A stretch of DNA of 64,000 nucleotides, taken from an uncultured Gammaproteobacteria bacterium (GTDB lineage: Bacteria; Pseudomonadota; Gammaproteobacteria; GCA-002705445; GCA-002716945). Positions 5,004 to 56,450 of this stretch are shown here, piece by piece. Location: positions 143,684-207,683 of the forward strand of contig CACOMO010000002.1 of assembly GCA_902628335.1 (NCBI GenBank), given 5' to 3'. Under the pieces are notes generated by a model, which saw nothing but the letters and a program-made list of their open reading frames with translations, ran no database searches and was not told the DNA's origin. A program made the translations under genes and the position numbers. Every line of letters starts with the position of its first letter. The stretch's first letter is position 1.

Positions 5004-6641
5004 ATGAGAAAAATTCTAGTAACAAGTGCTCTTCCATATGCGAATGGATCCATCCACCTTGGTCATCTTGTGGAATATCTTCAAACTGATATTTGGGTCA
5101 GGCACCAGAAAATGTCTAAAAACCACTGTACATACATTTGTGCAGATGATGCTCATGGGACACCTATCATGTTGAAAGCAAGAGAACTTAATATTACGCC
5201 AGAAAAACTAATAGAAAAATCAAAAAAAGAGCACACTCAGGATTTTGCTGATTTTTACATCGAATTCGACAACTACTACACAACGCACTCAGAAGAGAAT
5301 AAAATACTATCAGAACTTATCTACAAAAATCTTAAAGATAAAGGTGTGATAGAGAGAAGTGAGATTGAACAGTATTATGATGAAAATGAGGAGATGTTTC
5401 TCCCAGACAGATATATCAAGGGCACTTGCCCTAAGTGTGGGGAAGAAGATCAATATGGAGACTCGTGTGAAAAATGTGGGGCAACTTATTCATCAACTGA
5501 AGTTATTAACCCGATATCTGTAATTTCAAATTCTAAACCAATTAAAAAGAAAACAGAGCATCTCTTTTTTAAACTTTCAGACTATGAAAAATTTCTTAGT
5601 AAGTGGTTAACTGATAATCGAGTACAAAAAGAAATTAATAACAAGATGAAAGAATGGCTCTCAGATGGTTTATCAAGTTGGGACATTACTAGAGATAAAC
5701 CATATTTTGGCTTCAATATACCAGGAGAGAAAGAGAAATTCTTTTACGTATGGCTTGATGCACCTGTTGGTTATATTGCATCATACAAAAATCTGTGTGA
5801 TAAAAACTCTATAGATTATCTCGCAGCATGGAAAAAAGATTCCGAAGTTGAGTTGTATCATTTTATTGGAAAAGACATTGCATATTTTCACGTCCTATTT
5901 TGGCCATCAATGCTAGAGGGGGCTGGCTTTAGGACGCCAACAAGTGTATTTTGTCATGGCTTTCTCACCATAGATGGAGAAAAAATGTCTAAATCAAGAG
6001 GTACCTTTATTAAAGCTAGAACGTATCTGAATCATCTTAATCCTGAGTACTTGAGATATTATTTTGCTAGTCGGCTCACCAGCAAAATTGAGGACATTGA
6101 TTTGAACTTTAATGATTTTGTAGCTAGAGTAAACTCCGATTTGATTGGAAAAGTAATTAACATAGGTAGTAGGTGTGCCAGATTTATAAACAAGGATTTT
6201 GATAATACACTTGCTTCGAAGTCAAATAATCAATCTTTAATTTCGCAAATCCTTGAAAAGAAAAGTACTATACAAAAAAATTATGAAAATAGAGATTTTT
6301 CCAAAAATATACGATTAATCTCATCACTTGCTGATGATGTAAATAAGTATATTGATGATGAAAAGCCGTGGATTAAAATTAAAGATAAAGATAACAGTGA
6401 GACTGTTCAAGAAGTCTGCTCTGATGGAGTAAATATGTTCAGAGTTCTTGTTGGTTATTTAAAACCTGTACTCCCAAAGATTGCAGAAAATGTAGAAAAG
6501 TTTCTGAGATGTTCGCCAATTGACTGGTATAATATTGATCAACTAATATTAAAGGAAAAAATCGAGACTTTTAAACCAATAATAACAAGGATAGATGAAA
6601 AATCTATCGAGATAATTAAAACTGAGGCGAGAAAAAACTAG
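5004..6641 (+). CDS. metG: methionyl-tRNA synthetase, catalytic core (lacks the C-terminal tRNA-binding domain)
   Basis: HIGH motif PYANGSIHLGHL, KMSKS motif, and the zinc knuckle CPKCGEEDQYGDSCEKCG. Ends at TAG 6639-6641, immediately before a separate ORF that encodes the missing C-terminal domain. Confidence 0.9.
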   Translation: MRKILVTSALPYANGSIHLGHLVEYLQTDIWVRHQKMSKNHCTYICADDAHGTPIMLKARELNITPEKLIEKSKKEHTQDFADFYIEFDNYYTTHSEENKILSELIYKNLKDKGVIERSEIEQYYDENEEMFLPDRYIKGTCPKCGEEDQYGDSCEKCGATYSSTEVINPISVISNSKPIKKKTEHLFFKLSDYEKFLSKWLTDNRVQKEINNKMKEWLSDGLSSWDITRDKPYFGFNIPGEKEKFFYVWLDAPVGYIASYKNLCDKNSIDYLAAWKKDSEVELYHFIGKDIAYFHVLFWPSMLEGAGFRTPTSVFCHGFLTIDGEKMSKSRGTFIKARTYLNHLNPEYLRYYFASRLTSKIEDIDLNFNDFVARVNSDLIGKVINIGSRCARFINKDFDNTLASKSNNQSLISQILEKKSTIQKNYENRDFSKNIRLISSLADDVNKYIDDEKPWIKIKDKDNSETVQEVCSDGVNMFRVLVGYLKPVLPKIAENVEKFLRCSPIDWYNIDQLILKEKIETFKPIITRIDEKSIEIIKTEARKN

Positions 6642-6642
6642 C

Positions 6643-6975
6643 ATGACAGACGGTAAAATATTAATAGATGATTTCATCAAACTAGACTTGAGAGTTGGTA
6701 GAGTACTTGATGCTAAGGAGGTTGAAGACTCTAGAAAAATGTTAGAGCTCACAATTGACATAGGCGTAGAGCACAGAAAAATATTTGCAGGTATAAAAAA
6801 ATCATATTCACCAACTGACCTTGTTGGAAAAAATGTTGTTGTGATTGCAAATCTTCTCCCAAGAGAGATGAAGTTCGGTACCTCAGATGGAATGGTATTA
6901 GCTACCTCAGATGATGAGGAGGTAATTATCATAAATCCCGATAAAGATGTTACACCAGGTGCAAAAGTATCGTGA
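6643..6975 (+). CDS. stand-alone MetRS C-terminal tRNA-binding domain (Trbp111/EMAP-like), split from metG
   Basis: Aligns along its full length to the E. coli MetG C-terminus ([39 protein letters not shown]). It lies in the +1 frame relative to metG, directly after an A6 run. Confidence 0.8.
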   Translation: MTDGKILIDDFIKLDLRVGRVLDAKEVEDSRKMLELTIDIGVEHRKIFAGIKKSYSPTDLVGKNVVVIANLLPREMKFGTSDGMVLATSDDEEVIIINPDKDVTPGAKVS

Positions 6976-8705: not shown

Positions 8706-9665
8706 ATGAATAAAAAAGATATATCGCAAATATCTAATTGGCTCAATGAGATCATTAAGGGCTCATTTCACATCGAGATAGCATCTTCTGATGCAAGTTT
8801 TAGAACGTATTATCGAATAACTTATAATGAAGGGACAGATATAGTAATGCATGCGCCTCCGGATAAAGAGAGTTTAAAGGATGTTATAAAAATAAACAGT
8901 AAACTTGAAAGTGCAAATGTCACTGTCCCTAAAATTAAAAAAGTAAATGAAGATTTAGGCTTAATTTTGATGTCAGATTTTGGTACAAAAGTATACCTTG
9001 ATAATTTAAATGATGAGACAGTTTTTTGTTTATATACAGATGCTATCGATGTAATACATAATATGCAAAATAACATAACTACATCTGATCTTAGCTATTT
9101 TGATATTCACGAACAAAAAGATGAAATTAATCTTTTTATTAACTGGTTTCTAAAAAAACACATTGGATATGATAATGACAAATTGGGTGATATGGGTATA
9201 GAGAAAATACTCACAGATCTTCTAGGGAAGATAGATGAAATACCAAAAAAATTTATTCATAGGGACTATCACTCCAGGAATTTAATGCTTTTAGAAAAAG
9301 GTAATCCTGGCGTATTAGATTATCAAGATGCTATGACTGGTCCAATAACGTATGATCTTGTCTCGCTATTGAAAGATTGTTACGTCAAATGGGATGATGA
9401 ATTGATAAAGAAAATGTCAAAAACTTTTTTCCAGAGGTTAGATTTAAAGACATCTTTTGATGTCTTCAATTATTGGTTTGATATCACTGGTCTTCAAAGA
9501 CATTTAAAAGCGATTGGGATATTCTCCAGATTGAATTATAGAGATAATAAGCCTGCTTATATGAATGATATACCTAGAACCCTGAGTTATATTAGAGAAA
9601 CAGTCGGTAAATATGATGAGCTCAAGGAAATAAAATTGGTTTTAGATGGGCTTAAATTGGAGTAA
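8706..9665 (+). CDS. amgK: anomeric MurNAc/GlcNAc kinase AmgK-like (aminoglycoside phosphotransferase fold)
   Basis: APH-family catalytic motifs HRDYHSRNLM and a DYQD loop. Immediately followed by the MurU-like nucleotidyltransferase, as in the Pseudomonas AmgK-MurU murein recycling pair. Confidence 0.65.
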   Translation: MNKKDISQISNWLNEIIKGSFHIEIASSDASFRTYYRITYNEGTDIVMHAPPDKESLKDVIKINSKLESANVTVPKIKKVNEDLGLILMSDFGTKVYLDNLNDETVFCLYTDAIDVIHNMQNNITTSDLSYFDIHEQKDEINLFINWFLKKHIGYDNDKLGDMGIEKILTDLLGKIDEIPKKFIHRDYHSRNLMLLEKGNPGVLDYQDAMTGPITYDLVSLLKDCYVKWDDELIKKMSKTFFQRLDLKTSFDVFNYWFDITGLQRHLKAIGIFSRLNYRDNKPAYMNDIPRTLSYIRETVGKYDELKEIKLVLDGLKLE

Positions 9666-9683
9666 AAAGTGGTAACTAAAGCA

Positions 9684-10319
9684 ATGATACTTGCATCAGG
9701 CAGAGGTGAGAGGATGATGCCACTCACCAGAGATTTACCGAAACCTATGTTAAAAATCGGAAACGTAACCTTAATTGAAGATAAAATCATTAAGCTGGCA
9801 GAAATTGGAATCCAAGACATTGTAATTAATACAGGATATCTTGGAGAGTATATTAAAGATCATGTAGGTGACGGCTCAAAATTTGGTATAAATATAGCTA
9901 TCAGTGACGAAGGCGATCAACCCATAGGTACAGCAGAGGGTGTCAGGAGAGCGCTAAGCCATTTCGATAACAAAAACTTTATTTTAGTAAATGCAGATAT
10001 ATGGACAAATTATTCGTTTATCGATCTGAAGAGATTTGATTTAAAAGAATCACTGGGTCATATAATACTTACTCAAAAACCTGATTATCATAACGGTGAT
10101 TTTGATCTTTCAGACAATACATTACAAACTGGGAATTCATTCACCTACACTGGTATCGGATTGTATTCTACAATGCTATTCTCAAAATATGATGATAAAG
10201 ATTTAGGAATAATTCTTAAAAAAGAGAAATCGATTACTGCTGATGTTTACTCTGGTATGTGGAATGATATTGGCACTCCTGAGAGACTCAAAAATGCTAG
10301 AGACGAAATCTCATTGTGA
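9684..10319 (+). CDS. murU: N-acetylmuramate-1-phosphate uridylyltransferase MurU-like (sugar-phosphate nucleotidyltransferase)
   Basis: N-terminal MILASGRGERMMPLT nucleotidyltransferase signature. The ORF track offers GTG 9669, but ATG 9684 gives the canonical N-terminus. Paired with the amgK-like gene. Confidence 0.7.
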   Translation: MILASGRGERMMPLTRDLPKPMLKIGNVTLIEDKIIKLAEIGIQDIVINTGYLGEYIKDHVGDGSKFGINIAISDEGDQPIGTAEGVRRALSHFDNKNFILVNADIWTNYSFIDLKRFDLKESLGHIILTQKPDYHNGDFDLSDNTLQTGNSFTYTGIGLYSTMLFSKYDDKDLGIILKKEKSITADVYSGMWNDIGTPERLKNARDEISL

Positions 10320-20755: not shown

Positions 20756-21397
20756 ATGAACATACTTTTTTTAGGTGCACCAGGCTGTGGTAAAGGTACT
20801 CAGTCAAAAATTTTGATTGAGAAATATGGTATAGCGCAAATATCGACAGGTGATTTACTCAGAGAAGAAATGAGTTCCCAGAGCGATCTTGGGGAAAAAA
20901 TAAGGAGCATAATGGCGAAAGGTGATTTTGTAGACGATAAACTTGTCTTGTCGCTAGTATCAAAAAAAATAGAAAGTAACGAATGTAAAAAAGGATTCAT
21001 CCTTGATGGATTCCCAAGAAATTTATCACAAGCAAAAAGCTTAGATACGTTATTAGAAAACATGTCTAAAAGTATTGATCATGTTCTTTTTATCGATGTT
21101 CCAGATGAAGTTCTGATTCAAAGATGCACCGGAAGATTGCTCTGTGATACTTGTGACTATATCGGAAATAAAGATAGAGGAGAGAATATTGGTGACCCGT
21201 GCCCTGTTGCCGAAGGAACATTATATCAAAGAGAAGATGATAAAGAAGAAACAGTGAGAAATAGATTAGAAGTCTTTAAGGATCAAACCCAACCAATAAT
21301 AGAGTTTTACGAAGAAAAGGGTAAGCTAAATAAACTTATTGGTGGTAATGACCCAAAATTACTCGCAAGCAAAATCAATAAAATAATCAACATATAA
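20756..21397 (+). CDS. adk: adenylate kinase
   Basis: P-loop [10 protein letters not shown]. Long-type lid containing Cys residues ([10 protein letters not shown]...DPC). Confidence 0.95.
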
Positions 21398-21459: not shown

Positions 21460-24171
21460 ATGTTTTTACTAAGAAATTTTATATTTATAGCAGTATTCAC
21501 TACATCTAGTAGTGCTTCTGCTAATTGGTTCTCAGCTATAGCTGAGATAGACTTGTTTGAAAAAATAAAAGATACTACGGACATTATTCCAAAACCTTAC
21601 AAGATTCCTGTTACACAAGGGAACTTAATACCTGAGGAAAACATCAGGAGATTACAATCTGGTCTGAGCAAAGAGCAAGTAAGATTTTTATTAGGTACCC
21701 CGTCATTTATTGATGCTTTCCATGAAAATAGATGGGATTATGTTTATTTCTCACGTAACTCGGAAGAAGTTAAAAATATTGCAATTATTTTCACTAACGA
21801 AAAAGTTAGAGAAATTATTGTCGATGATGAAAGCATACCTGATATTGATAATCTCAATTCTGAGAGAATATCAAAAAGCATCCCCATTCTAGAGGAACAA
21901 GATACCACTGAGAGACCATCTCAGGAAATCGTTGTAGCAAAAAGAGAGGATTTTCTAACTTTAAGAAAGACTAACAAATTACCAGTTTGTATTGATGATG
22001 AATTTGAAAGTTATCAGTCACAACGCACCCTCGTTCAAGCAGATGAGGATGCTTTAGAAGTAAGGTCCGACGAGCAAAATCAAGATGAAAATGGAATATT
22101 CTATGCAACAGGTAATGTAGAAATAGAACGAAGAGATGATTTGGTTAAATCTGATAAAGCTCAGTATGATGGTGATACAGGAGTCCTATTTGCTGAGGGA
22201 AATGTTAGATACCTTACAGAAGATCTAACATTATACGCTGATAAAGGAGGTTATAACAGTCAAAATGATACAGTAAATTTTTCATCAACTAGTTTTTATT
22301 TTGCTAATCAAAAAAGCTCAGGAAAAGGTAGAGCTGATGAAATTCTAATTGATGACGATGGTATTGTATATATGACGCCAAGTAGTTATACAACCTGTTC
22401 TATAAATAATCCTGACTGGGAATTTTCATCATCTGAAACAATTCTTTATCGTGATTCTGATCGCGGTCATGCTTATAACATTTTTTTGAAATATAAAGGT
22501 GTCCCAGTATTATACTCTCCTTTTGTCAGCTTTCCATTGAGTCGAGAAAGACACAGTGGATTTTTACTACCATCAGTTGGAAGCTCTGGTGAGAGTGGTA
22601 CCGTGATTTCAACGCCATACTATTTTAATCTCTCAGAAAATTTCGATCTTACATTAACACCAACTAATTATTCTGGGAGAGGTCAAATGCTTGAAGCTGA
22701 GTTTAGGCACAAATCTGAAAACAGTAATACAGTAATTGAACTTGCTAATCTCAATGACGATGATATTTTTGGTAAGAATAGACACGCCTACTTTATAAGA
22801 GATACTAGAACATATAAAAATACGCTTGTTCAACAAAATAATAGTTGGAGAGGAACGCTTATTTCATCAAATATAAATATAGGGGGTATATCTGATATTA
22901 GATATTTTGATGACTTTAGTAATACTGTATCCAGAGTTGGTAGAACTCATATCACGCGTGACTTTATTCTTGAGAGAGAGGAGTATAATAACTTTGGATA
23001 TTTTAAAGCGACTATTGCTGCAACAGACTATCAATTGGCTAAACAAGATTTAGTAGAGCAATATAGTGTTTTACCAAGAGTAAATTTTGAATATCAGAGT
23101 GAGAGATCCGATAGAAATTTTAATTATAACTTTACTGGAGAAATAGCAGACTTCGATCATACTCTGCCACATAAAGCTACGGGGTTGAGGGTGGTATTGT
23201 ATCCTTCGGTTGAATATCCAATTTCTAATCCAGGTTGGGAGGTTAGTACGAAATTTGGTGTTAGGCATAGTAGCTATGATCTATCAGCAAACGGTTCTGG
23301 AATCACAAGAACTAGCATATCAAAAACTTTCCCTATATTTAGTGTTAGAGGGAAAATGATATATGAAAAATTATCAACGAGTAATATTCTCCAAACACTT
23401 GAACCGGAGATGTACTTTCTTTACGTACCTTCGAGTAATCAAGATGATATCCCAATTTTTGATTCGGGTAACATAGACTTTAAATATAACTTATTTTCTG
23501 AAAACAAATTTTATGGTCAAGATAGAATCAACGATGCCAAACAAGTTACTCTTGCATTGTCATCAAGCATGATCAATACGAATAGTGGTAATGAATTACT
23601 TCGAGCAACAATAGGTCAAATTTTTTATTTGGATGACAGATCGGTAAATATTGAAAATAGCGAGACCGATTCAACTAATACCTCAAATATACTTGGATTG
23701 GTAAATGCGAGATTAGATGATTATTGGAGGTTAACCGGCTATTCCGAGTTTAATCCACGTGGAAATTATGCTGAAAAAAATCAAATCCGATTATCCTATA
23801 AACGACCTTATGGCAAACAAAATCAAATTTTTAATACAAGTTATAGATTTAGTAGAGGTGAGCAAGAAGAAGTAGATTTCTCTGCAGTGCTTCCATTCAA
23901 CAGCAGGACCTCTATTATTGGTAAAGTCAATTATTCATTCAATAATAGAAGAAGTAATACTGAAGATGTCTTGGAGAAGATGATAGGCGTAGAGTATGAA
24001 AGTTGTTGCTATGGAATAAAGCTTGTTGCGAGAGAGTTTTGGAATGGAACAAAAATAGATGATATCCTTTATTTTGAATTTCTTCCAAAGGGGATTGCCA
24101 CATCAGATAATAGAACTGCTGAACTATTGAGAGATGGTATACTAGGCTATCAAGATAAATTTGATTACTAA
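21460..24171 (+). CDS. lptD: LPS-assembly protein LptD with an N-terminal BamE(SmpA/OmlA)-like domain
   Basis: Residues from about 195 to the end are collinear with E. coli LptD, from the OstA-N jellyroll through the barrel, including SCCYGIKLV matching SCCYAIRVG. Residues about 45-125 match BamE: KIPVTQGNLIPEENIRRLQSGLSKEQVRFLLGTPSFIDAF...RWDYVYF. One continuous frame with an SPase I-type signal peptide. Confidence 0.85.
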   Translation: MFLLRNFIFIAVFTTSSSASANWFSAIAEIDLFEKIKDTTDIIPKPYKIPVTQGNLIPEENIRRLQSGLSKEQVRFLLGTPSFIDAFHENRWDYVYFSRNSEEVKNIAIIFTNEKVREIIVDDESIPDIDNLNSERISKSIPILEEQDTTERPSQEIVVAKREDFLTLRKTNKLPVCIDDEFESYQSQRTLVQADEDALEVRSDEQNQDENGIFYATGNVEIERRDDLVKSDKAQYDGDTGVLFAEGNVRYLTEDLTLYADKGGYNSQNDTVNFSSTSFYFANQKSSGKGRADEILIDDDGIVYMTPSSYTTCSINNPDWEFSSSETILYRDSDRGHAYNIFLKYKGVPVLYSPFVSFPLSRERHSGFLLPSVGSSGESGTVISTPYYFNLSENFDLTLTPTNYSGRGQMLEAEFRHKSENSNTVIELANLNDDDIFGKNRHAYFIRDTRTYKNTLVQQNNSWRGTLISSNINIGGISDIRYFDDFSNTVSRVGRTHITRDFILEREEYNNFGYFKATIAATDYQLAKQDLVEQYSVLPRVNFEYQSERSDRNFNYNFTGEIADFDHTLPHKATGLRVVLYPSVEYPISNPGWEVSTKFGVRHSSYDLSANGSGITRTSISKTFPIFSVRGKMIYEKLSTSNILQTLEPEMYFLYVPSSNQDDIPIFDSGNIDFKYNLFSENKFYGQDRINDAKQVTLALSSSMINTNSGNELLRATIGQIFYLDDRSVNIENSETDSTNTSNILGLVNARLDDYWRLTGYSEFNPRGNYAEKNQIRLSYKRPYGKQNQIFNTSYRFSRGEQEEVDFSAVLPFNSRTSIIGKVNYSFNNRRSNTEDVLEKMIGVEYESCCYGIKLVAREFWNGTKIDDILYFEFLPKGIATSDNRTAELLRDGILGYQDKFDY

Positions 24172-24172
24172 A

Positions 24173-25423
24173 ATGCTGAAAAAAATCAAAATATTTATTT
24201 TCCTGTTTGCGATTTCTTTCTCCTATTTGCTACATGGCTTCGATGATCGCATCATTGTAGTGGTTAACGATAAGGTTATTCTAAAATCTGAAATCCAGGA
24301 TTCCATTAATAACTTATCTCGGGAAGAGGTTACAAAAGAGTATAGCACGTTAAGCGAAAGAGAGATTATAGATAAAGTTATCGAAAAAATGATCGATAAA
24401 ACTCTTATACTTCAAGCAGCCGAAAGATATGATATTAAAATTTCAGATATTGCATTAGAGAACAAACTTCGAGAAATAGCTAGCGAGCAAAAATTGACTA
24501 TTAACGAATTGAGAAATCTTGTAATCAATAGTGGGTTAGATTACCAGAGGTACATTAGGGAATTGAGAGATGAAATGACAATGAATGCACTGTTCGTTTC
24601 TCAATTTTACTCTCGAGCTAACGTAACAGAAGAAGAAGTCGATAATTTCATAAGAAGAGAGAAAATTAACGAACAAGGAAATATAATATATGAGATTATA
24701 GAGTTTGTGATCATAGATGAAAATAAAACCATTGATAGGGACTCTATAGATAACATCTATTCATACACAATCAAAACGAACTTCACAGAGGCAAAAGAAA
24801 AGTTTACTGAACATGATATAAAGATCACGAACCTAGGGACTGTCGATATTGAAAGTCTTCCACTTCTTTATGTCAATGCACTTAAGAATGTTAATTCAAA
24901 TGAATACACGGATATTATAAAGAGTTCGAAAGGATATCATATTTTAAAGGTGCTATCTGCAAAAAATCAGGCTATAGCTTATATAGATGAATACAAAGTA
25001 AGACATATACTAATTAAGCCAGATCCTATGACATCTGATAAAGAAGTAAAGCAAAAATTATTTAAACTTAGAGATGAAATATCAAACATCGATGAATTTG
25101 CTGAAAGCGCAAAAAAATATTCAGTAGATCATGTTTCAGCCTATAACGGTGGAGACTTAAATTGGCAGCGTTCAGAAAATTTAGTTCCGGAGTTCGCCTC
25201 TATAATGGAGAAAACGCCATTGAATACAATCAGTGATCCTTTCTCGACACAATTCGGATGGCATATACTCTTCGTAGAGAATAAGAGAACGGTAGATGAT
25301 GCGCAATCCATTATACGAGCTAATATAGCTAAAACAATTAGAGCGAATAAGGCTAAACGAGAAAATGATAATTGGAAAGCAAAACTAAAGGATCAAGCAT
25401 ACATAGAAATTAAGGAATTTTAA
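24173..25423 (+). CDS. surA: periplasmic chaperone / PPIase SurA
   Basis: Signal peptide, an N-terminal chaperone domain and two parvulin-like domains. Conserved lptD-surA-pdxA-rsmA synteny. Confidence 0.85.
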   Translation: MLKKIKIFIFLFAISFSYLLHGFDDRIIVVVNDKVILKSEIQDSINNLSREEVTKEYSTLSEREIIDKVIEKMIDKTLILQAAERYDIKISDIALENKLREIASEQKLTINELRNLVINSGLDYQRYIRELRDEMTMNALFVSQFYSRANVTEEEVDNFIRREKINEQGNIIYEIIEFVIIDENKTIDRDSIDNIYSYTIKTNFTEAKEKFTEHDIKITNLGTVDIESLPLLYVNALKNVNSNEYTDIIKSSKGYHILKVLSAKNQAIAYIDEYKVRHILIKPDPMTSDKEVKQKLFKLRDEISNIDEFAESAKKYSVDHVSAYNGGDLNWQRSENLVPEFASIMEKTPLNTISDPFSTQFGWHILFVENKRTVDDAQSIIRANIAKTIRANKAKRENDNWKAKLKDQAYIEIKEF

Positions 25424-25424: not shown

Positions 25425-26396
25425 TTGAAAAAAATATTAATCACGCTTGGCGAGCCAGCAGGTATAGGTCCAGACTTAGGCGTTCTTCTCTCTGAAAAAT
25501 ATTTAGATAAATCAACGATAGTTATTGCCGATCCTAAACTACTCGAGCAAAGTGCAAAGAAAATAAAGAAAAAAATACATCTTAATATACTAGATAATAT
25601 AAACTCTGATCTAGTCAGTGGCAAAGGGTGCATTAATATTTTACCTGTTGATTTAAACACAAGAAACACTCCAGGCAAGCTGAATCCTAAAAATGCAAGT
25701 TATGTAATTAAAACAATTCAACTTGCAGCTGAATTATGTAAACAAGGATATGCGGGTGGAATGGTAACAGGTCCTATCAGTAAATCAGTGTTAAATAAGG
25801 GTGGGTTTAAAATATCTGGACATACAGAGTTTTTAGCAGAGATATGCAATTGTAAATCAGTAATGATGTTAATGAACAAAAAAATGAAAGTTGCTCTTCA
25901 TACAACGCACGTACCTCTGAATGAAATATCTAAATATATTACTAAGAAGCTAATTCGTGAGACAGTACTAATAGTTGATCACGATATGAAAGTCAAATTT
26001 AAAATAAAGAAACCTAAAATATTGATTACAGGCCTCAACCCTCACGCAGGTGAAGATGGGATGTTGGGGAAACATGAGTCTACAATTATTAAACCAACAG
26101 TGCATAAACTTAATACTGAGGGTATCCTTATTGATGGACCTGTCCCAGCCGATACAGCATTTCTGCAAAAAAATATTACAAAATATGATGTTATTTTGAC
26201 TATGTTTCATGATCAAGGATTGCCAGTGATCAAATTTGATAATTTTAAAACAACAGTTAATATTACACTTGGTTTACCCATAGTAAGAGTGTCTGTAGAT
26301 CATGGGACAGCTCTTGATCTTGCTGGTACAGGAAAAGTAGATATATCCAGTTTTGTAGAGTCGATAAAAATAGCAAAAAAAATAAGTAATGCATAA
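25425..26396 (+). CDS. pdxA: 4-hydroxythreonine-4-phosphate dehydrogenase
   Basis: PdxA family motifs GEPAGIGPD and HGTA.D.AG. Confidence 0.9.
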   Translation: MKKILITLGEPAGIGPDLGVLLSEKYLDKSTIVIADPKLLEQSAKKIKKKIHLNILDNINSDLVSGKGCINILPVDLNTRNTPGKLNPKNASYVIKTIQLAAELCKQGYAGGMVTGPISKSVLNKGGFKISGHTEFLAEICNCKSVMMLMNKKMKVALHTTHVPLNEISKYITKKLIRETVLIVDHDMKVKFKIKKPKILITGLNPHAGEDGMLGKHESTIIKPTVHKLNTEGILIDGPVPADTAFLQKNITKYDVILTMFHDQGLPVIKFDNFKTTVNITLGLPIVRVSVDHGTALDLAGTGKVDISSFVESIKIAKKISNA

Positions 26397-27153
26397 ACAT
26401 AAAAAATCTCTTAGCCAAAACTTTCTTATTGATAAAAATGTAATAATTAAAATTCTTGATCGAGTGTCTCCATCGAATTCAGACTTTTTTCTTGAGATTG
26501 GACCGGGGGATGGTGCTCTAACTTATCCTTTGATTGATAAAATCTCTAAACTTATCGTTATTGAGAAAGATCAAGCACTCTCGGTAAAACTAAGTGATAT
26601 GTTTAGTAAAAATAATAATATTACTGTAATCAACCATGATGTTCTTAAAATAGATTTAAATAAGTATATAAAAGATCGAGTAAGAGTTATTGGTAACTTG
26701 CCGTACAATGTTGCAACTGAGATAATTTTCTTATTACTTGATTCTAAGATCATAATTCAAGATATACATATCATGCTACAAAAAGAGATGGTAGATAGAA
26801 TATCTGCTCCTCCAGGGAATAAACAGTATGGAAGAATTAGTGTTATGGTACAAGCTAATTACGAAGTTAAAAAATTGTTTGACATTTCACCAAATGTGTT
26901 TGAGCCCAAGCCAAAGGTATGGTCTTCATATATGAGATTAATCCCGAAAAAAAAAGTTTTTATTGACGAAACTCATAAAGAAAATTTTAGGAAACTTGTT
27001 ACTTTGGCATTCCTATCAAGAAGGAAAATGATTAAGACATCACTAAAAGATAGCATCTCATTAAATGAAATACATCATATTATTGGTGATGAAAAGATTA
27101 GGCCGGAACAGTTAAGTTATAATCAATTTATTGAGATGGCGAAATATGTTTAA
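26389..27153 (+). CDS. rsmA: 16S rRNA (adenine1518/1519-N6)-dimethyltransferase
   Basis: KsgA family: SQNFLID, EIGPGDGALT and NLPYNV motifs. Confidence 0.9.
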   Translation: MHKHKKSLSQNFLIDKNVIIKILDRVSPSNSDFFLEIGPGDGALTYPLIDKISKLIVIEKDQALSVKLSDMFSKNNNITVINHDVLKIDLNKYIKDRVRVIGNLPYNVATEIIFLLLDSKIIIQDIHIMLQKEMVDRISAPPGNKQYGRISVMVQANYEVKKLFDISPNVFEPKPKVWSSYMRLIPKKKVFIDETHKENFRKLVTLAFLSRRKMIKTSLKDSISLNEIHHIIGDEKIRPEQLSYNQFIEMAKYV

Positions 27154-45742: not shown

Positions 45743-46234
45743 ATGAATCGACTATTTATACCAGGCATTTTTTCAATAGTCTTGCTAGATCTTTTTGTAA
45801 AATATGCCATCGAGTTTTTTGACTGGGGAACAAAACCTACATCAATCTCTCACTTTCTAATGATAAGTAAAACGTACAATAAAGGTTTATTCTTTGGGAT
45901 AGCGCACTCTAGCGATCTATTTGTAAATTATTCTATCATCCTCCTGATGACTTTAGTTATCCTAGCGCTCATTTTTTATGTCTGTAAGCTTCTAGATAGT
46001 AATAATAATTTATCTAGAGTATCAAAAATATCTTGGATGCTATTACTAGGTGGTGGGATTGCCAATTATATAGATCGAGTCATGGACAATAAGGTAACAG
46101 ATTATATTATCTTACATTATGACGAATTTTATTTCCCAGGAATTTTTAATATTGCTGATTTTTTTATATCAGTAGCATTCATTTTTCTTGTTATAGATAT
46201 ACTAATTTCTAATGAAAAAAAAGATAGAATATAA
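45743..46234 (+). CDS. lspA: lipoprotein signal peptidase II
   Basis: Four-helix membrane protein with conserved NxGxxF and FNIAD motifs. Confidence 0.85.
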   Translation: MNRLFIPGIFSIVLLDLFVKYAIEFFDWGTKPTSISHFLMISKTYNKGLFFGIAHSSDLFVNYSIILLMTLVILALIFYVCKLLDSNNNLSRVSKISWMLLLGGGIANYIDRVMDNKVTDYIILHYDEFYFPGIFNIADFFISVAFIFLVIDILISNEKKDRI

Positions 46235-49319: not shown

Positions 49320-50534
49320 TTAACTATCAGATCCAACAGCTTTCTTTGCCTCTGGAGACTTTATGACTGTAGGTAAAAAATCTAGATTTGCAATACCTAT
49401 TAGCACAATAATAAGAGATAAAGCAACACCACCTAGTCCTAGACCTAACTCCCATATAGTTGGAATATAAGTATGGATGACATTGTCATAAAAACTACTC
49501 TCCAGAATTTCATAATTAGTGAACATTTTAAGTGGGTATGCTTGTCCAGCAATTATGATAACGTACATAGCAAGGAAACTTCCAACAAGTATTAACAAGG
49601 TAGCGCTCATTAAACTGGATTCTGATTTGTTTTCATCTCTGAATAATATATATAAAGGTAATATCAGACCTATGACAACCTGCCCAACCCAAAATGCAAT
49701 AGTATAAACACCACCATTTAAAAGAATAAATTTCTCAAATTCAAGGTGTTTGGATATATATAAATTTGTTACATGATATAAAATAAGAAAGTAAAGATTT
49801 GCAAATAGAAAAAGTAGGGTTAGTTTCCGTAAGTTTTGTAATATCTCTTCAGAAAAAAGTGTCTTTTGAAAATAATTAATTGCTTTCACTATAAGAAAAT
49901 ATACTACTGTCCCATACAGGAGAGACATTATTATAAATAATGGAGCTAATATTGCTGTGCCATAAGCCTCGCGTGAGATGAGGAAACCAAATATTGAACC
50001 TGTTCCTGTCGTTAAAACAATCCTCCAAGTGAAAGCGAAAATTCCAGCTGGTCTAGAAAACTTGTTTACATTTCTATCTAGCATGGTCCAAATATATATT
50101 GCTAAAATCCCTGCAAATCCAGAGTACAGGAAAATATTCCAAGCGAAGATGGATTTAAAATTATATGTCGTCATCGCTACTATTAATCTATCCGGCCTAC
50201 CAAGATCTAGGACTAATATGGCTAGTCCTGATATTAAAAAGGCCATAGCCAGTAAAGCTGACAATGGGGCAAGGGGTTTGTATAACTTTTTATCAAATAC
50301 CGATGATATAGACGCAATGTTTAATACACCAGACGCTATGACTATTAAGAGGACTGCAAAGATATGAGGTAATCCCCAAACAATTTGATTATTCATTCCT
50401 GTAACATAGTGACCCTCTGTCTCCATATAATGTGAGCACAAATAACCAATCAAAATGACAAAACCTAAACCAAAAAACATCATCCAAAAAGTTTTTGATT
50501 CTATCTGAAATTTCTTAAATATTATTTTTTCCAT
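49320..50534 (-). CDS. dsrP: DsrP (NrfD/PsrC-like quinone-interacting membrane subunit)
   Basis: Ten-helix NrfD-like membrane protein, translationally coupled to dsrO. Confidence 0.85.
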   Translation of the reverse strand: MEKIIFKKFQIESKTFWMMFFGLGFVILIGYLCSHYMETEGHYVTGMNNQIVWGLPHIFAVLLIVIASGVLNIASISSVFDKKLYKPLAPLSALLAMAFLISGLAILVLDLGRPDRLIVAMTTYNFKSIFAWNIFLYSGFAGILAIYIWTMLDRNVNKFSRPAGIFAFTWRIVLTTGTGSIFGFLISREAYGTAILAPLFIIMSLLYGTVVYFLIVKAINYFQKTLFSEEILQNLRKLTLLFLFANLYFLILYHVTNLYISKHLEFEKFILLNGGVYTIAFWVGQVVIGLILPLYILFRDENKSESSLMSATLLILVGSFLAMYVIIIAGQAYPLKMFTNYEILESSFYDNVIHTYIPTIWELGLGLGGVALSLIIVLIGIANLDFLPTVIKSPEAKKAVGSDS

Positions 50535-50536
50535 AT

Positions 50537-51277
50537 TTAAATGTTAGAGTAAGTAACTCTTTGCTTCAATGAGAGATCAGCTCGAAGTCGTCTATTTTGC
50601 TTAGTTTTAAGAGCTTGGCTTACTCTGCTGTTAGGATCAGATAAATCACCAAAAGATATAGCTTTGTGACCCTCTTTCATGCATGCTTCCTCACATGCGG
50701 TAGTGGGAATACCATGATCAATTCTATTAACACAAAAATTACAACTTTCCACGCAACCTTTGCCCCTAGGTGCAGTTGTAACTTGTTCAGTTAAATTTTC
50801 GTGAACAAATGATCTAGCTTTAAATGGGCATGCCATCATACAGTAACGACAACCTATACATGTATGCTGATTTACCATAACTATACCATCAACTCTCCGA
50901 AATGAAGCACCAGTTGGGCAAACGTCACAGCATGGTGGATTCTCACAGTGCTGGCATAACATTGGCACAACTTTAACCTTATCTGTTTTGATATCCTTTA
51001 TTGTTAGTTTTCTTATCCATTGTGAGTCTGTCTCAGGTCTATCAAAACCATACAAACCATTCTCTTCTACGCACGCATCAACACATGCTGTACAACCTTT
51101 AGCGCACTTATCAACGTCTATACTCATCGCCCATTTTGTATCTGAGTTAACTTCCTCGTTAAGTGGTTTTGCAGCTTGCGCAGAGGTAATTATGTCAGGA
51201 ATAAAATATACAGTCGACAGTAGAGAAATCGATTTCACTATAAAACCTCTTCGACTAAGTTTAGTGTCAATAGTCAT
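50537..51277 (-). CDS. dsrO: DsrO (periplasmic 4x[4Fe-4S] ferredoxin-like subunit, Tat signal)
   Basis: Twin-arginine motif SRRGFIVKS. Multiple CxxCxxCxxxCP motifs. Confidence 0.85.
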   Translation of the reverse strand: MTIDTKLSRRGFIVKSISLLSTVYFIPDIITSAQAAKPLNEEVNSDTKWAMSIDVDKCAKGCTACVDACVEENGLYGFDRPETDSQWIRKLTIKDIKTDKVKVVPMLCQHCENPPCCDVCPTGASFRRVDGIVMVNQHTCIGCRYCMMACPFKARSFVHENLTEQVTTAPRGKGCVESCNFCVNRIDHGIPTTACEEACMKEGHKAISFGDLSDPNSRVSQALKTKQNRRLRADLSLKQRVTYSNI

Positions 51278-51750
51278 TTTGCACCTTCGACATAACTGAC
51301 TAATTTTTCAATCTCTTTTGATACATGGTCGTGTGAATGATTGTAATTAAGACTAATATGAGCTTCTGGTTTTCTTCCTCTAGGCACGGACGCGTGACAT
51401 GAAAAACAATCTATATTAACAGCTGTTTGAATATGGCATGTTTGACAAAATTGTCCCTCAGAATTTATTGGTATCGGCTCGCCAACTTCATCATATGAGA
51501 CATGACAATCAATACAATTTGCAAAACTGTGATTCTTTGTTCTTAAGCCATTAATTACTGTTTTGTCTCGTTGATGATATAGAAAAACAAAGTGTTCTTT
51601 CTGCATTATCTCAGTAGGTTCCACACACTGTGTTGCATCATCTGCTTTTGATTTGCCTTTGATTGAGTGGTTTATGCCATCATGACTGTATATGTCAGGA
51701 GAGATTAAGAAAATTATCAGTAACAGAAGCCTTATCGCTAATTGGTACAC
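51274..51750 (-). CDS. dsrJ: DsrJ (periplasmic triheme cytochrome c)
   Basis: Three CxxCH motifs, CIDCH, CQTCH and CFSCH, with a signal peptide. Confidence 0.85.
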   Translation of the reverse strand: MYQLAIRLLLLIIFLISPDIYSHDGINHSIKGKSKADDATQCVEPTEIMQKEHFVFLYHQRDKTVINGLRTKNHSFANCIDCHVSYDEVGEPIPINSEGQFCQTCHIQTAVNIDCFSCHASVPRGRKPEAHISLNYNHSHDHVSKEIEKLVSYVEGAK

Positions 51751-51785
51751 TTTCTCCCTCCCAGATTTCTACCAATTGTGGGTAG

Positions 51786-53759
51786 CTATTCTCCAAGACC
51801 CATTTTTATATAACCAGTTGGACACACATCTGCGCAAATGTGACATCCGATGCATTTGTTATAATCGGTATCGACATATCTACCAGTTGTTGATTGATCT
51901 TTTTTTACTCTAAATACAGCGTCTTGAGGACAATATATGACACAGTTATCACATTCGAAACACATACCACAACTCATACATCTGCCTGCTTCTTTAATTG
52001 CTTCTTCCTCAGTTAATCCAATAATTCGATCCTCATAATGATCTATGACGTCATCTCCTGTAGGTACTGCTTCACCACGCTTATATCTTGCTTCATGTTT
52101 ATAGTGACCCAGAAATAACTCTGTCGAAGGGATTACCTCCTGTCCAGATCTATCCTCATAATTATGAACCACAGCATTATTATTATCACTTCCTCTAAGT
52201 TTGTCTGGATCTTCAATTTTAGCCTGATAATCTTCAGGTGAGAGATCTGATTCTCTGAGTTTATCTAATAATTTGAAATGATGGACATCAACTTTAGGTC
52301 TTCTTTTAAAATCATCATTTTCAAAATAACTCTCAATCGTATCTGAAACTATTGAGCCTTGACCTATTGCTGTTGTTAATAAATGTGGTCTAATAATATC
52401 ACCTGCTACAAAATGACCTTCTTTTGTTTTATGTCTGTAGAAGTCGTCAACTTCAAAGAAGCCTTTTTCATTTCCCATTTCCTCATAACCTTCAATGTCA
52501 GGACTTTGCCCGATAGCAGAGATAATCAGGTCAGCCTCAATAACTTTTTCAGTTCCTTCAATAGGTTTTGGTACATTCTCTTCAAAGGTACAATCAGCAA
52601 CAACAAGAGCAATTGCTCTTCCATTCTCATCTTGCTCTACTTTTACAGGAATTACTCCATTTAATATTGATACACCTTCGTGCATCGCATCATTAACTTC
52701 TTGTTCAGCTGCGGTCATTTCCTCTCTCTTGAATAAGGAAGTTAGTGTTACCTCGGCACCCTCTTTGATGGCTTGCTCAGAAACATCTTGAGCAACATAC
52801 CCATGAACAACTGCTTCTGGTTTTTCTTGAGGGTTCATATTAGAGATATGGCCAAGTCTTCTTGCTACTGAGACCACATCAATAGATGTATCACCACCAC
52901 CAACGCAAACTACTTTTTGTGCACCTACTTTTAATCTACCTTGACTGAACGCTTCTAAGAATTCTACACCGTTCAAACAGTTTTCTGCATCACTCCCTTC
53001 AACTGGGAGCGATCTTCCATTCCAGCAGCCAATAGTCCACAGAACAGCATCATGAGATTTTTCAACATCTTCTAAAGGTACGTCTTTGCCAACTCTTGTA
53101 TTAAGTACTACTTCAATATCACCCAAGTCTAAGATACGTTTTATTTCTGCATCCAAGATATCTCTTGGTGTTCTATAATTAGGAATGCCGTAGCGCATCA
53201 TGCCACCAAGTTTTTCTCTCTCTTCAAAAATAGTGGATGCATAACCTTTCTTTCTTAACTGATATGCAGCAGACATGCCAGCTGGTCCACCTCCTATAAT
53301 TGCTACTCTCTGTTTTTTAAGTTCAGGCGCAGGGTCAAATTTAAATCCTTCTTTAAATGCTGTATCTCCGATGAACTGTTCTACTGCATTAATTCCAACA
53401 TAATCATCAACTTCGTTTCTGTTACAGCCACTTTGACATGGAGCGGGGCAAACTCTTCCCATTTGTGATGGAAAAGGGTTTGCAGTTGTTGATCGCCTGA
53501 AAGCATATTCAGACATTGTCATACCCTCTGGTGCTTTTTCTATACCTCTAACGATTTGTAACCAACCTCGTATATCTTCACCAGATGGGCAACTACCTTG
53601 GCAAGGTGGTGTTTTATGAATATATGTAGGACACTTATGGGATTTGTCTTGATTAAAGATATCCTCTGAAAAGTCTGTATACTTATGATCACCATCAGAG
53701 AATCGTCTATAGGTATTCTCCTCTTTCATCAAGTTGACTGTTTTTTCTAGCTTAGACAT
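51786..53759 (-). CDS. dsrL: DsrL (NAD(P)H:acceptor oxidoreductase, GltD-like with C-terminal ferredoxin domain)
   Basis: N-terminal Cys clusters, an FAD/NAD Rossmann motif IIGGGPAGMSAA, and a C-terminal 2x[4Fe-4S] domain CMSCGMCFECDNC...CIGCHICADVCP. Confidence 0.85.
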   Translation of the reverse strand: MSKLEKTVNLMKEENTYRRFSDGDHKYTDFSEDIFNQDKSHKCPTYIHKTPPCQGSCPSGEDIRGWLQIVRGIEKAPEGMTMSEYAFRRSTTANPFPSQMGRVCPAPCQSGCNRNEVDDYVGINAVEQFIGDTAFKEGFKFDPAPELKKQRVAIIGGGPAGMSAAYQLRKKGYASTIFEEREKLGGMMRYGIPNYRTPRDILDAEIKRILDLGDIEVVLNTRVGKDVPLEDVEKSHDAVLWTIGCWNGRSLPVEGSDAENCLNGVEFLEAFSQGRLKVGAQKVVCVGGGDTSIDVVSVARRLGHISNMNPQEKPEAVVHGYVAQDVSEQAIKEGAEVTLTSLFKREEMTAAEQEVNDAMHEGVSILNGVIPVKVEQDENGRAIALVVADCTFEENVPKPIEGTEKVIEADLIISAIGQSPDIEGYEEMGNEKGFFEVDDFYRHKTKEGHFVAGDIIRPHLLTTAIGQGSIVSDTIESYFENDDFKRRPKVDVHHFKLLDKLRESDLSPEDYQAKIEDPDKLRGSDNNNAVVHNYEDRSGQEVIPSTELFLGHYKHEARYKRGEAVPTGDDVIDHYEDRIIGLTEEEAIKEAGRCMSCGMCFECDNCVIYCPQDAVFRVKKDQSTTGRYVDTDYNKCIGCHICADVCPTGYIKMGLGE

Positions 53760-53830
53760 AAATCTCCCACCAAATATAAGTTTATTATTCTAATCTAATA
53801 TTCAATAATTATAGCACATGGATTCAGACC

Positions 53831-55330
53831 CTAAAGCTCTTTTTTGTTCATAATTAGAGCGTTTCCAACAAGCTGATGTAAGCTTATAATCTGGTCGATT
53901 TCAAACCCGTAGTATCCTAGAGCTTTCGAGAACTGTGACTTACAAATAGCACATATAGCAGCCATATGAGTGACACCATAGTCATCGACAACCCTCTTTA
54001 GTGCCTCCATTCTGGGGAGAGCACCTTTCATGCGTAATTCCATAAGATCATCTGTCAAGAGGCCTCCTCCGCCGCCGCAGCAGAAAGTTTTCTCTTTAAT
54101 TGTACTTTCGTCCATATCGTAAAAATGATTAGTAGTTGCCCTAATGATGTCTCGCGGAATTGTAAATTGCCCACCTATCACATCACCCATATTTGATGCT
54201 CTAGCCACATTACAGGAGTCATGATAAGTAACGACCATGTCATCGTTGGCAGACTTATCAAACTGTAAAACATTTTTCTGAATTAAGTCGTATGTTACTT
54301 CGCAAATGTGTTGAGGCACAGGATATTTAGGGTCTAGAAAATCAAAAGGTCCGGCAAGTGTGTTGAGAAAACTATATGCAACACGCCATGCGTGACCGCA
54401 CTCACCAAAGACAATCCTTTTCACATTTAAATCTAGTGCGGCTTCCCTAATCCTCATTGCAAGTTTACGCATGTTTGCATAACTTCCAATGAACATACCA
54501 AAATTAGCAGCTTCACTAGCATGAGAGCTCAAAGTCCAACTTAGGCCTGCTTGATGAAAGACCTTTCCATAACCAATTAAGCCATCTACGTGTGGTTCGG
54601 CAAAAAAATCTGCTGAGGGTGTAACTAGTAAAATATCAGAATCTTTCTGATCAAGTGGGTATTTTACATCAATATCAATCTCATCTTTGACATCCTCTTC
54701 AAGACCCTCGAGCGTATCAGCGAGGGCAGGTTCAGGTAGTCCTAAATTATTACCAATCTTATGAACTTTACCGATAATTTCATTACAATATTTTTGACCA
54801 ACGCCCACGGAATCCATAATTTCTCGTGCTGCCATTGATATTTCTGCAGTATCGATTCCCATAGGACAAAATACCGCACATCTCCTGCACTGTGAACACT
54901 GGTGGTAATAGGAATACCAATCATCTAAAACTTCTTTTGTTAAATCTACTGCTCCTACAAGTTTAGGGAAGTATTTACCAGGTAAAGTGAAGTATCTCCT
55001 ATAAACACTTCGAAGCAAGTTTTGCCTACCTACGGGCATGTTACTTGGATCTTTCGTTCCTAGATAATAATGGCATTTATCTGTGCAAGCACCACATTGA
55101 ATACACGAATCTAGGTAGACTCTTAGTGATCTATATTTTTTTAGCAGATCACCCATTTTGTCGAGGGCTGCATCTTGCCAGTTATCGACAAGTTCTCCCG
55201 GGTAACCAAGGGATGACTGGAATTCCTCTTTTGATTTAAAAGGTGCTAAATGTGCAGTTGCTTTTTTTTCAAGTAAAGGAACATCAGAGTATTCTTTAAG
55301 TTCAGGTTTTTCGAATTCTTTAACTGCCAT
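53831..55330 (-). CDS. dsrK: DsrK (HdrD-like catalytic subunit with CCG domains)
   Basis: Ferredoxin motifs CIQCGACTDKC and CSQCRRCAVFCP, plus CCG domains FCCGGGGG. Confidence 0.9.
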   Translation of the reverse strand: MAVKEFEKPELKEYSDVPLLEKKATAHLAPFKSKEEFQSSLGYPGELVDNWQDAALDKMGDLLKKYRSLRVYLDSCIQCGACTDKCHYYLGTKDPSNMPVGRQNLLRSVYRRYFTLPGKYFPKLVGAVDLTKEVLDDWYSYYHQCSQCRRCAVFCPMGIDTAEISMAAREIMDSVGVGQKYCNEIIGKVHKIGNNLGLPEPALADTLEGLEEDVKDEIDIDVKYPLDQKDSDILLVTPSADFFAEPHVDGLIGYGKVFHQAGLSWTLSSHASEAANFGMFIGSYANMRKLAMRIREAALDLNVKRIVFGECGHAWRVAYSFLNTLAGPFDFLDPKYPVPQHICEVTYDLIQKNVLQFDKSANDDMVVTYHDSCNVARASNMGDVIGGQFTIPRDIIRATTNHFYDMDESTIKEKTFCCGGGGGLLTDDLMELRMKGALPRMEALKRVVDDYGVTHMAAICAICKSQFSKALGYYGFEIDQIISLHQLVGNALIMNKKEL

Positions 55331-55339
55331 TTTATAATC

Positions 55340-56071: not shown

Positions 56072-56103
56072 GCTCCTCTCCTCTCATAACCTTGCTAAGA
56101 ATA

Positions 56104-56436
56104 TTATACGCAACCAGTAGGCTTTGGTAATCCTGCAAACTTACAAGCTTGCTTACCAGGGCCATATGGGAAAAGTTCATAAAGGTATTTGCTGTTACCT
56201 TTTTCTTTTCCGAGTTTTTTACCGACTGCTTTGGTCAATACCCTAACCGCTGGAGCGATTTGATACTCTTCATAATATTCTCTTAGGAAATTAATAATTT
56301 CCCAGTGATCTTCGCCAAGATCAATGCCATCTTCTTTAGCCATTATCTCCGCGACATCTTTTTCCCAGTCGTTAAGGTTACTTAAGTAACCCTCTTCGTC
56401 TACTTCTAAGCTTTTACCATTTACTTCTATTGGCAT
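56104..56436 (-). CDS. dsrC: DsrC (sulfur-carrier / sulfite reductase substrate protein with CysA and CysB)
   Basis: C-terminal arm QACKFAGLPKPTGCV with two Cys spaced 10 residues apart. TusE/DsrC fold. Confidence 0.9.
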   Translation of the reverse strand: MPIEVNGKSLEVDEEGYLSNLNDWEKDVAEIMAKEDGIDLGEDHWEIINFLREYYEEYQIAPAVRVLTKAVGKKLGKEKGNSKYLYELFPYGPGKQACKFAGLPKPTGCV

Positions 56437-56450
56437 AGTCTACTCCTGAT

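Follow-up and report, generated by a model that had tools for sequence, protein, structure and literature searches.

Layout of the bamE::lptD gene

We describe a gene in which a domain of the BamE (SmpA/OmlA) family and the lipopolysaccharide (LPS) assembly protein LptD are encoded as one polypeptide. It is located on contig CACOMO010000002.1 of an uncultured gammaproteobacterium, in a stretch of 64,000 nucleotides that was analyzed as a whole and is called the window here. The β-barrel assembly machinery (BAM), which inserts proteins, and the LPS transport machinery (Lpt), which inserts LPS, build the two halves of the outer membrane, and both are antibiotic targets. The fusion bears on how LptD assembly is organized and on whether BAM and Lpt are spatially coordinated. 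The features of the gene are given below by nucleotide position, strand, and amino acid (aa) range; SPase stands for signal peptidase and pLDDT for the predicted local distance difference test score of AlphaFold2 (AF2) models.

21460..24171, plus strand: bamE::lptD fusion gene, 903 aa plus stop, a single uninterrupted open reading frame (ORF)
21460..21522, plus strand: signal peptide, aa 1-21, of SPase-I type and without lipobox; by direct reading, MFLLRNFIFIAVFTTSSSASA is followed by NW at the cleavage site
21523..21594, plus strand: variable pre-domain segment, aa 22-45, ending in a conserved W/I-x-P-K-P motif before Tyr47 (alignment)
21595..21822, plus strand: BamE (SmpA/OmlA) domain, aa 46-121, alpha-alpha-beta-beta-beta (Pfam, profile, Protein Data Bank (PDB), AF2, and Foldseek)
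21823..21969, plus strand: variable acidic linker, aa 122 to ~170, predicted to be disordered (pLDDT <50 for aa 124-181)
21970..22479, plus strand: mature LptD N-terminus and β-jellyroll, aa ~171-340, with Cys177 and Cys313 (OstA_2, LptD_N, and PDB alignments)
22480..24168, plus strand: LptD β-barrel, aa 341-903, containing the adjacent Cys849 and Cys850 and ending in an aromatic residue (Pfam LptD)

The stop-to-stop frame opens at 21448, and its first start codon is the ATG at 21460. Direct reading revealed no second signal peptide between the BamE and LptD parts, as judged by hydrophobic stretches and by internal starts followed by a signal peptide. Solved LptD structures align only from aa 188-210 of the query (equivalent to residue 39 of E. 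coli LptD), which places the insert precisely at the boundary of the signal peptide and the mature LptD N-terminus. It amounts to about 150 extra residues, comprising the BamE domain and the linker. A motif, 'QEIVVAKREDFL...LPVCIDDEFE', is conserved in the alignment, with QEIVVAKREDFL standing directly before the LptD N-terminus. A scan of the fusion gene for promoters and terminators gave nothing above chance.

Much of this layout had been anticipated from the bare letters of the window. The original prediction described one continuous 903-aa frame joined to a canonical LptD and an SPase-I signal peptide (...SSSASA before NW) with no lipobox, and both descriptions are accurate. Its coordinates, 21460-22050 (aa 1-197), bracket the signal peptide, BamE domain, and linker. 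The linker is likewise present; it was put at ~70 aa, close to the ~50-65 aa measured from aa 122 to about 170-185.

As a separate observation, tandem PD(I/F)EL pentapeptides precede the BamE domain in several related proteins (P0104, P0106, P0107, P0109, and P0121; loci L018, L021, and L027). They occur in 2-6 copies within the N-terminal 30-80 aa. The window's own fusion protein has none.

Identity of the two modules

The N-terminal domain is a genuine member of the BamE family, by profile, PDB, and fold matches. The Pfam BamE model (PF04355, SmpA_OmlA) matches aa 54-118 with 66-68 bits against a cutoff of 23.2 (E=2.6e-18). This strong match upholds the earlier assignment of aa ~45-125 to the family, for which the same profile had been proposed as a check. 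A phmmer search with E. coli BamE returned this ORF as the sole match in the window (E=7e-9), and the alignment spans the whole domain, including its three β-strands. A profile of the fused BamE domains (A1) was also searched against 1.84 billion representative proteins, which yielded 4393 matches below 1e-3 and 2860 below 1e-10. Above 100 bits, these are only fused proteins or pieces of them, caused by a contig end, adapter read-through, or a frameshift. From 98 bits down, they are ordinary lipoprotein BamEs of 100-250 aa with the motifs QQGN and FHxNRWDYVYY. In the PDB, the profile matches Xanthomonas OmlA (79 bits), 7jrk and 9pxg_E (78 bits), Neisseria BamE (71 bits), and E. coli BamE (54 bits). 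It reaches only 33 bits with TpgA-N (9vnj_B), which is BamE-like and not part of BAM.

Structure prediction gives the same result. The AF2 model of the domain has a mean pLDDT of 80, with a core of 87-96, and contains helices at 38-42 and 50-57 and strands at 70-76, 83-91, and 94-100 of the domain construct. Its top Foldseek matches are BamE chains from BAM complexes, at root-mean-square deviations of 3.3-3.7 Å over ~73 columns and template modeling scores (TMt) of 0.56-0.70; TpgA-N is also among the matches. In the pre-domain segment, aa 24-42 are predicted to form a helix at low confidence (pLDDT ~60). On the NCBIfam BamE equivalog PRK11548 (cutoff 93 bits), the fused domain scores 33-35 bits and ordinary non-enteric standalone BamEs 48-73 bits. 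The TpgA model gives 24.6 bits against a cutoff of 350, and the fusion protein contains no OmpA_C domain.

Besides the LptD type, only two kinds of BamE fusion were encountered. TpgA of Acinetobacter sp. Tol 5 combines a BamE-like N-terminal domain with a peptidoglycan-binding OmpA_C domain, and TpgA-N binds the periplasmic face of the AtaA barrel (PMC12523085). It resembles the present protein in that a BamE-fold domain is built into a larger envelope protein. By sequence, however, TpgA-N clusters separately from BamE, and its partner domain is soluble rather than the barrel protein itself. The second kind comprises BamE lipoproteins with a C-terminal NTF2-like domain, Cds6_C (PF24125), in other Proteobacteria (P0144, P0156, P0168, and P0211). 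These proteins show that BamE tolerates a C-terminal partner after a long linker. They nevertheless keep the lipobox and have a small NTF2-like partner, whereas the partner in bamE::lptD is an integral outer-membrane protein.

The remainder of the gene encodes a predicted functional LptD, on the basis of its jellyroll, 26-strand barrel, four canonical cysteines, and operon context. Pfam LptD (PF04453) matches aa 464-815 with 222.9 bits (cutoff 22.4) and OstA_2 matches aa 188-274 with 22.2 bits (cutoff 21.2), while LptD_N at aa 213-331 scores 19.6 bits, slightly under its cutoff of 20.4. NCBIfam LptD models align over aa 186-901 and stay below their equivalog thresholds (PRK04423, 312 bits against 944; PRK03761, 297 against 683). 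These two models are lineage-specific, and the fusion LptD shares only ~25% identity with LptDs of the enterobacterial and Xanthomonas types; its relatives nevertheless carry the NCBI name 'LPS assembly protein LptD'. LptDs in the PDB match with E=1e-48 to 1e-60, with alignments over aa 188-900 at E=1e-53 to 1e-60. In the full-length AF2 model, the LptD body superposes on solved LptD barrels with a Foldseek TMt of 0.77-0.80. The model is moderate overall, with a mean pLDDT of 66.8, and jellyroll strands 199-345 are at ~80; its N-terminal part has the BamE fold already seen in the domain model. C177, C313, C849, and C850 are invariant in 47 homologues. By the alignment offset to PDB LptDs, we take these to be C31, C173, C724, and C725 of E. 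coli.

The fusion protein thus shares its jellyroll, 26-strand barrel, four cysteines, and gene order with known LptDs (E. coli/Shigella 4Q35, Klebsiella 5IV9, and Pseudomonas 5IVA/8H1R), and differs from them by the ~150 additional N-terminal residues. It had been suggested that the BamE domain might replace the extra N-terminal domain of Pseudomonas LptD. This finds no support, given that 8h1r aligns only from query aa 210 and that the Pseudomonas extension has no sequence similarity to the BamE insert. No lptE was found in the window or in the related loci that were fetched. The neighboring genes, including the classical lptD-surA-pdxA-rsmA order, are as follows.

20756..21397, plus strand: adk, upstream neighbor (Pfam ADK)
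24161..25423, plus strand: surA, downstream neighbor (Pfam SurA_N and Rotamase)
25425-26396, plus strand: pdxA, after surA
26389-27153, plus strand: rsmA, after pdxA
45743..46234, plus strand: lspA, signal peptidase II (Pfam Peptidase_A8, 84.8 bits)

The surA gene overlaps lptD by 11 nt, and its product shows one recognizable peptidyl-prolyl isomerase (PPIase) stretch (aa 276-375). A contact between BamE and PPIase-2 of SurA has been proposed for E. coli (2026 review, PMC13067283).

Conservation, anchor loss, and residue changes

In a marine, uncultured clade of Gammaproteobacteria whose guanine-plus-cytosine (GC) content is 29-35%, the fusion is both old and fixed. A homologue search returned 385 proteins below 1e-10. 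Among the 120 listed, essentially all full-length proteins combine PF04453 with PF04355, at 100% to 41% identity, and the few that lack a BamE annotation are fragments with a truncated N-terminus. At the level of 90%-identity clusters, more than 100 contain both domains, and the 100%-identical protein (P0001) is present on 6 contigs. GTDB species were scanned with one genome each, and in 28 of these genomes the lptD match begins at query residue 1-45; all 28 are metagenome-assembled genomes (MAGs) or single-amplified genomes of uncultured marine Gammaproteobacteria. In Woeseiaceae, Steroidobacteraceae, Burkholderiales, Methylococcales, and others, the match starts only at residue ~190-216, i.e. 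lptD is unfused. This confirms that the architecture is non-standard, as had been proposed. As far as seen, it is restricted to one clade of uncultured AT-rich marine Gammaproteobacteria.

The BamE domain is in the lptD frame in all 28 clade genomes, and the ORF is uninterrupted in 26 of them. In one of the remaining two, a nanopore/pilon assembly, the frame shifts at a homopolymer of A7; in the second, one TAA codon interrupts the jellyroll ('KSD*AEFN'). Both look like sequencing or assembly errors, and neither is a clean split at the domain junction. Exact-sequence look-ups of six fused variants retrieved dozens of contigs from Tara, Joint Genome Institute (JGI), SPAdes, MEGAHIT, and Logan assemblies, and the fused gene lies between adk and surA on every one that reaches far enough. 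In addition, bamE adjoins lptD in no outgroup, so the architecture does not represent two neighboring genes read through.

Constraint was compared between segments using a full-length alignment of 47 sequences. The first figure is the mean pairwise identity and the second is that of the window against the 41% subgroup.

Signal peptide: 0.23; 0.20
Pre-domain segment: 0.39; 0.05
BamE domain: 0.59; 0.42
Linker: 0.30; 0.15
Jellyroll: 0.69; 0.41
Barrel: 0.66; 0.44

By these identities, the BamE domain is under purifying selection about as strict as that on the essential LptD modules, and the variable segments on either side of it behave as spacers. Full-text literature searches for a BamE/LptD fusion or an LptD with SmpA/OmlA found no description of the architecture. 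Public databases name the fused proteins 'LPS assembly protein LptD' or 'hypothetical protein'. Both Pfam matches are precomputed there, so the architecture has apparently been visible but not discussed. An LptD with a built-in, anchor-less BamE domain, real and conserved, is apparently new to the searchable literature.

The most conspicuous change is the loss of the lipid anchor. The first cysteine of the fusion protein is C177, which leaves no lipobox. A lipobox is present in none of 99 fused homologues, compared to 90 of 105 standalone BamE representatives, where its cysteine precedes the conserved Tyr by a median of 9 residues. Cysteines seen N-terminally in fused homologues sit inside the hydrophobic h-regions of signal peptides. 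Since lspA is present in the window and the lipoprotein pathway therefore exists, the loss is not due to loss of the pathway. An amphipathic helix in aa 22-45 was considered as a substitute anchor and dropped, as its hydrophobic moment is unremarkable (maximum 0.56).

The residues of the domain were compared column by column between 109 fused and 134 standalone BamE domains; window numbering equals E. coli numbering plus 19. The core common to both sets, invariant or nearly so, consists of Y28, Q34, G35, G49, Q54, V55, G60, P62, D66, F68, W73, Y75, and F95 (E. coli numbering). In the 109 fusions, Y47 (= Y28) and F87 (= F68) are found in 100% and D85 (= D66) in 96%, and position 83 (= 64) is hydrophobic. 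In E. coli BamE, the stretch joining the lipidated Cys to the fold is unstructured; Y28, which belongs to it, touches barrel turn 2 of BamA and is required for outer-membrane integrity, while D66 and M64 mediate BamD binding, with L63 and F68 nearby (Maruno et al., bioRxiv 10.1101/2024.10.31.621230). Fold stability does not readily explain why the equivalent of Y28 is invariant in the fusions, as this residue lies beyond the E. coli fold; a retained contact is the more fitting reason.

Four other positions have diverged. D31, Q33, N36, and L63 are conserved at 63-91% across standalone BamEs. In the fused set, D31 is replaced by Pro (98%), Q33 is variable, N36 (91% Asn in standalone BamEs) becomes S, V, or T, and L63 becomes S or T. 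As a result, the canonical 'I-Q-Q-G-N' motif is incomplete and Leu63 is absent, with Q34 and G35 kept. Y37, a BamA contact in E. coli (bioRxiv 10.1101/2024.10.31.621230), is Leu in the fusion, and V, L, or I in most non-enteric BamEs as well. N113, E114, K105, R99, and E118 are invariant in the fused set alone.

In summary of this comparison, the domain shares with the BamE lipoprotein its Pfam family, alpha-alpha-beta-beta-beta fold, almost the whole residue core, the Tyr of the N-terminal extension, and the Asp in contact with BamD. It differs by lacking a lipobox, by being part of a larger polypeptide, and by its altered D31, Q33, N36, and L63. It also lacks the C-terminal low-complexity tail and 'GFFxRxLxxIG' end of many non-enteric BamEs. 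Given that the lipobox and part of the canonical motif are missing, we do not call it BamE but a domain of the BamE family, which probably still functions as BamE does. The C-terminal motif deserves mention in its own right. Many non-enterobacterial standalone BamEs (P0136, P0138, P0142, and P0426) end in an amphipathic-looking 'GFFxR(M/L)LxxIG(F/L)' after a long tail rich in Pro/Ala or acidic residues, and this C-terminus is absent from both E. coli BamE and the fused form.

Candidate roles and genomic context

We propose, with a probability of about 0.5, that the fused domain may act as a tethered, cis-acting BAM-docking module for LptD. It retains the extension Tyr and the BamD-contact Asp and falls within BamE proper rather than with TpgA, and the simplest reading of this is that it still docks on BamA and BamD. 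The two retained residues also make plausible the coupling of LptD biogenesis to BAM that the original prediction had raised. The domain would bind POTRA5 and barrel turn 2 of BamA together with the BamD surface, as BamE does. Docking could hold the LptD N-terminus at BAM while the barrel folds around LptE; also or instead, it could keep the finished LPS translocon within the linker's length of BAM. The LptD barrel would supply the membrane anchor that acyl chains give lipoprotein BamE. LptD is BAM's largest and slowest-folding substrate. It is also one of the two essential substrates of BAM, on which it folds around LptE (PMC13048289). The change at four otherwise conserved motif positions suggests that the fused copy is specialized rather than a plain BamE substitute.

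Several observations weigh against this docking role. D31, Q33, N36, and L63, highly conserved in standalone BamE, are changed or variable in the fusion, and L63 reportedly lies near the BamD-binding D66, so the interface may be altered or lost. BamE-like domains can also be recruited to other barrels, as TpgA-N is to AtaA (PMC12523085). The relative placement of BamE and LptD in the full-length model is uninformative, with a linker pLDDT below 50.

Natural, conserved, and covalent, the fusion is a 'Rosetta-stone' hint at BamE and LptD working physically close together, and it provides a ready-made construct that makes BAM-Lpt coupling directly testable. It also indicates that tethering to an integral barrel can replace the lipid anchor of BamE. 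The architecture is likely to surprise specialists in outer-membrane biogenesis, though we infer its function and the organisms are uncultured.

An unlikely alternative is that the domain has been repurposed as a binding module with no role in BAM. It would stabilize or regulate the translocon by binding the periplasmic turns of the LptD barrel, LptE, an LptM-like factor, LptA, or peptidoglycan. TpgA-N provides a precedent, as it is BamE-like and binds the AtaA barrel without being a BAM subunit (PMC12523085). The systematic substitution of four canonical positions and the presence of invariant residues of its own (N113, E114, K105, R99, and E118) would fit such a history, as would the lowest score of all tested BamEs on the NCBI equivalog model (33-35 against 48-73 bits). 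However, the domain sequence is within BamE proper, with 54-79 bits to solved BamEs against 33 to TpgA-N. The Y28 equivalent is invariant and the D66 equivalent nearly so, and the present data indicate no partner.

It is also rather improbable that these organisms have no BamE besides the fused domain, the standalone lipoprotein gene having been replaced by gene fusion. BAM would in that case depend on the LptD-borne copy, and each BAM complex containing BamE would be physically coupled to an LPS translocon, which would itself become a covalently tethered, stoichiometric BAM subunit in a combined BAM-Lpt supercomplex. If so, it would represent a new, merged architecture of outer-membrane biogenesis in streamlined marine bacteria, in which outer-membrane protein insertion and LPS insertion are spatially coupled. 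In its favor, the conservation of the domain is that of an essential protein, and the equivalents of the functionally validated Y28 and D66 are kept. No second bamE was found by phmmer and hmmsearch among six-frame ORFs of the window and 55 related loci, a small part of each genome; this includes ±10 kb of lptD in the 28 genomes. The genomes appear to be very small, in which case a redundant gene would more readily be lost. Fused lptD is found on single contigs of 1,084,941 bp (L175, ERZ28548063) and 1,077,534 bp (P0449), and a candidate related lineage discussed below has one of 1,017,602 bp (L176, ERZ1699694 contig_2786). Single contigs of 1.02-1.08 Mb in these marine gammaproteobacteria suggest genomes of only about 1 Mb. 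Against this, the search covered only ~5% of the genome, and the loss of Q33, N36, D31, and L63, unexpected for a full canonical role, argues mildly against a sole BamE. Synteny was unusable for locating a separate bamE, given that the searched loci contain no fur, smpB, or lptE.

Furthermore, the ancestral fur/bamE-dapB site is occupied by a canonical lipoprotein bamE in a lineage of similar composition. This P0426 family consists of 246-258-aa lipoprotein BamEs of an AT-rich marine lineage, always found in the order nadK-recN-fur / bamE-dapB-carAB-greA (L056-L062 and L176-L187; e.g. L057 9455-11556). In these proteins, the lipobox is followed by a linker of ~30 aa, a hydrophobic segment precedes the domain, and the tail is long and acidic, with 'YFELLIESIGF' at its end. 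The loci have a GC content of 0.32-0.35, the same as the fused clade. Their tetranucleotide correlation to the fused-clade locus L018 reaches r=0.92 between non-homologous regions, compared to 0.19-0.61 for loci of 0.38-0.40 GC; this comparison has no negative control at ~33% GC. MAG CAYFEV01, which also contains the family, was submitted in one batch with the fused MAGs CAYFEQ01 and CAYFGJ01. The P0426 lineage may therefore be the same as the fused clade or a sister lineage.

No direct link between the two was detected. The P0426 bamE and fused lptD share no contig, MAG, or sample, the latter compared for five fused variants. NCBI-sourced P0426 flanking proteins derive from the bulk metagenome MDSY01 and MAG CAYFEV01, neither of which is among the 28 fused MAGs. 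Comparison of the two locus sets by blastp and blastn identified no common genes besides the BamE domain. A metagenome scan with the DapB of the P0426 locus used patterns that proved too generic: 79 of the 80 loci kept belong to unrelated lineages at ~50% identity. Overall, the odds that fusion-bearing genomes also keep a lipoprotein BamE are roughly even, perhaps slightly better.

We also considered whether, among standalone BamEs, the P0426 protein is nearest to the fused domain, and rejected this, as its 38-40% identity and 87-89 bits are no better than those of many other BamEs. The two have in common an 'FKNE' motif and the hydrophobic pre-domain segment. Other AT-rich standalone BamEs lead elsewhere. 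Homologues of P0141 are from the Leucothrix/Cocleimonas lineage, and the top 120 matches to a profile of 18 such proteins are mostly from Methylophaga and Piscirickettsiaceae.

It is very unlikely that the product is a polyprotein cut in the linker after export to release a normal LptD and a soluble, non-lipidated periplasmic BamE. Predicted disorder and a variable, acidic sequence make the linker accessible to proteases, and the conserved QEIVVAKREDFL motif directly precedes the LptD N-terminus. However, no cleavage motif or dedicated protease is evident, and the data do not call for cleavage. Once released and without an anchor, BamE would also lose the membrane proximity needed by its N-terminal extension, and we know of no precedent for cleavage of an LptD or BamE precursor. 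The chance of an artefact, whether an error joining adjacent genes as the original prediction had cautioned or a fortuitous BamE similarity, is negligible. The two interrupted frames of 28 are a nanopore A7-homopolymer frameshift and a lone TAA in the jellyroll, and the junction is intact in the other 26 genomes and in dozens of contigs made by independent assemblers from independent samples. The LptD part lacks its own signal peptide, no outgroup has bamE beside lptD, and the Pfam match has E=2.6e-18.

The window contains other features of interest. A complete reverse-type dissimilatory sulfite reductase cluster is located at 49320-59883 on the minus strand, with dsrA and dsrB identified by Pfam NIR_SIR and dsrEFH, C, MKLJOP, and N by eye. 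It marks the organism (~35% GC) as a sulfur-oxidizing marine gammaproteobacterium. An assignment to SUP05/Thioglobus was not confirmed; the cluster is present, but no relative is named Thioglobus, SUP05, or vesicomyid symbiont. An apparently split metG is found at 5004-6975 (plus strand). Its 545-aa methionyl-tRNA synthetase core ends at the TAG at 6639-6641, and one base after this stop, in another frame, a 110-aa ORF encodes the tRNA-binding domain (Trbp111-like, PF01588) that usually forms the C-terminus of this enzyme; the arrangement is either a genuine split or a frameshift. Likewise, an APH-family kinase and nucleotidyltransferase pair at 8706-10319 (plus strand), ~11 kb upstream of lptD, resembles the cell-wall recycling genes amgK/murU, which adjoin lptD in Pseudomonas.

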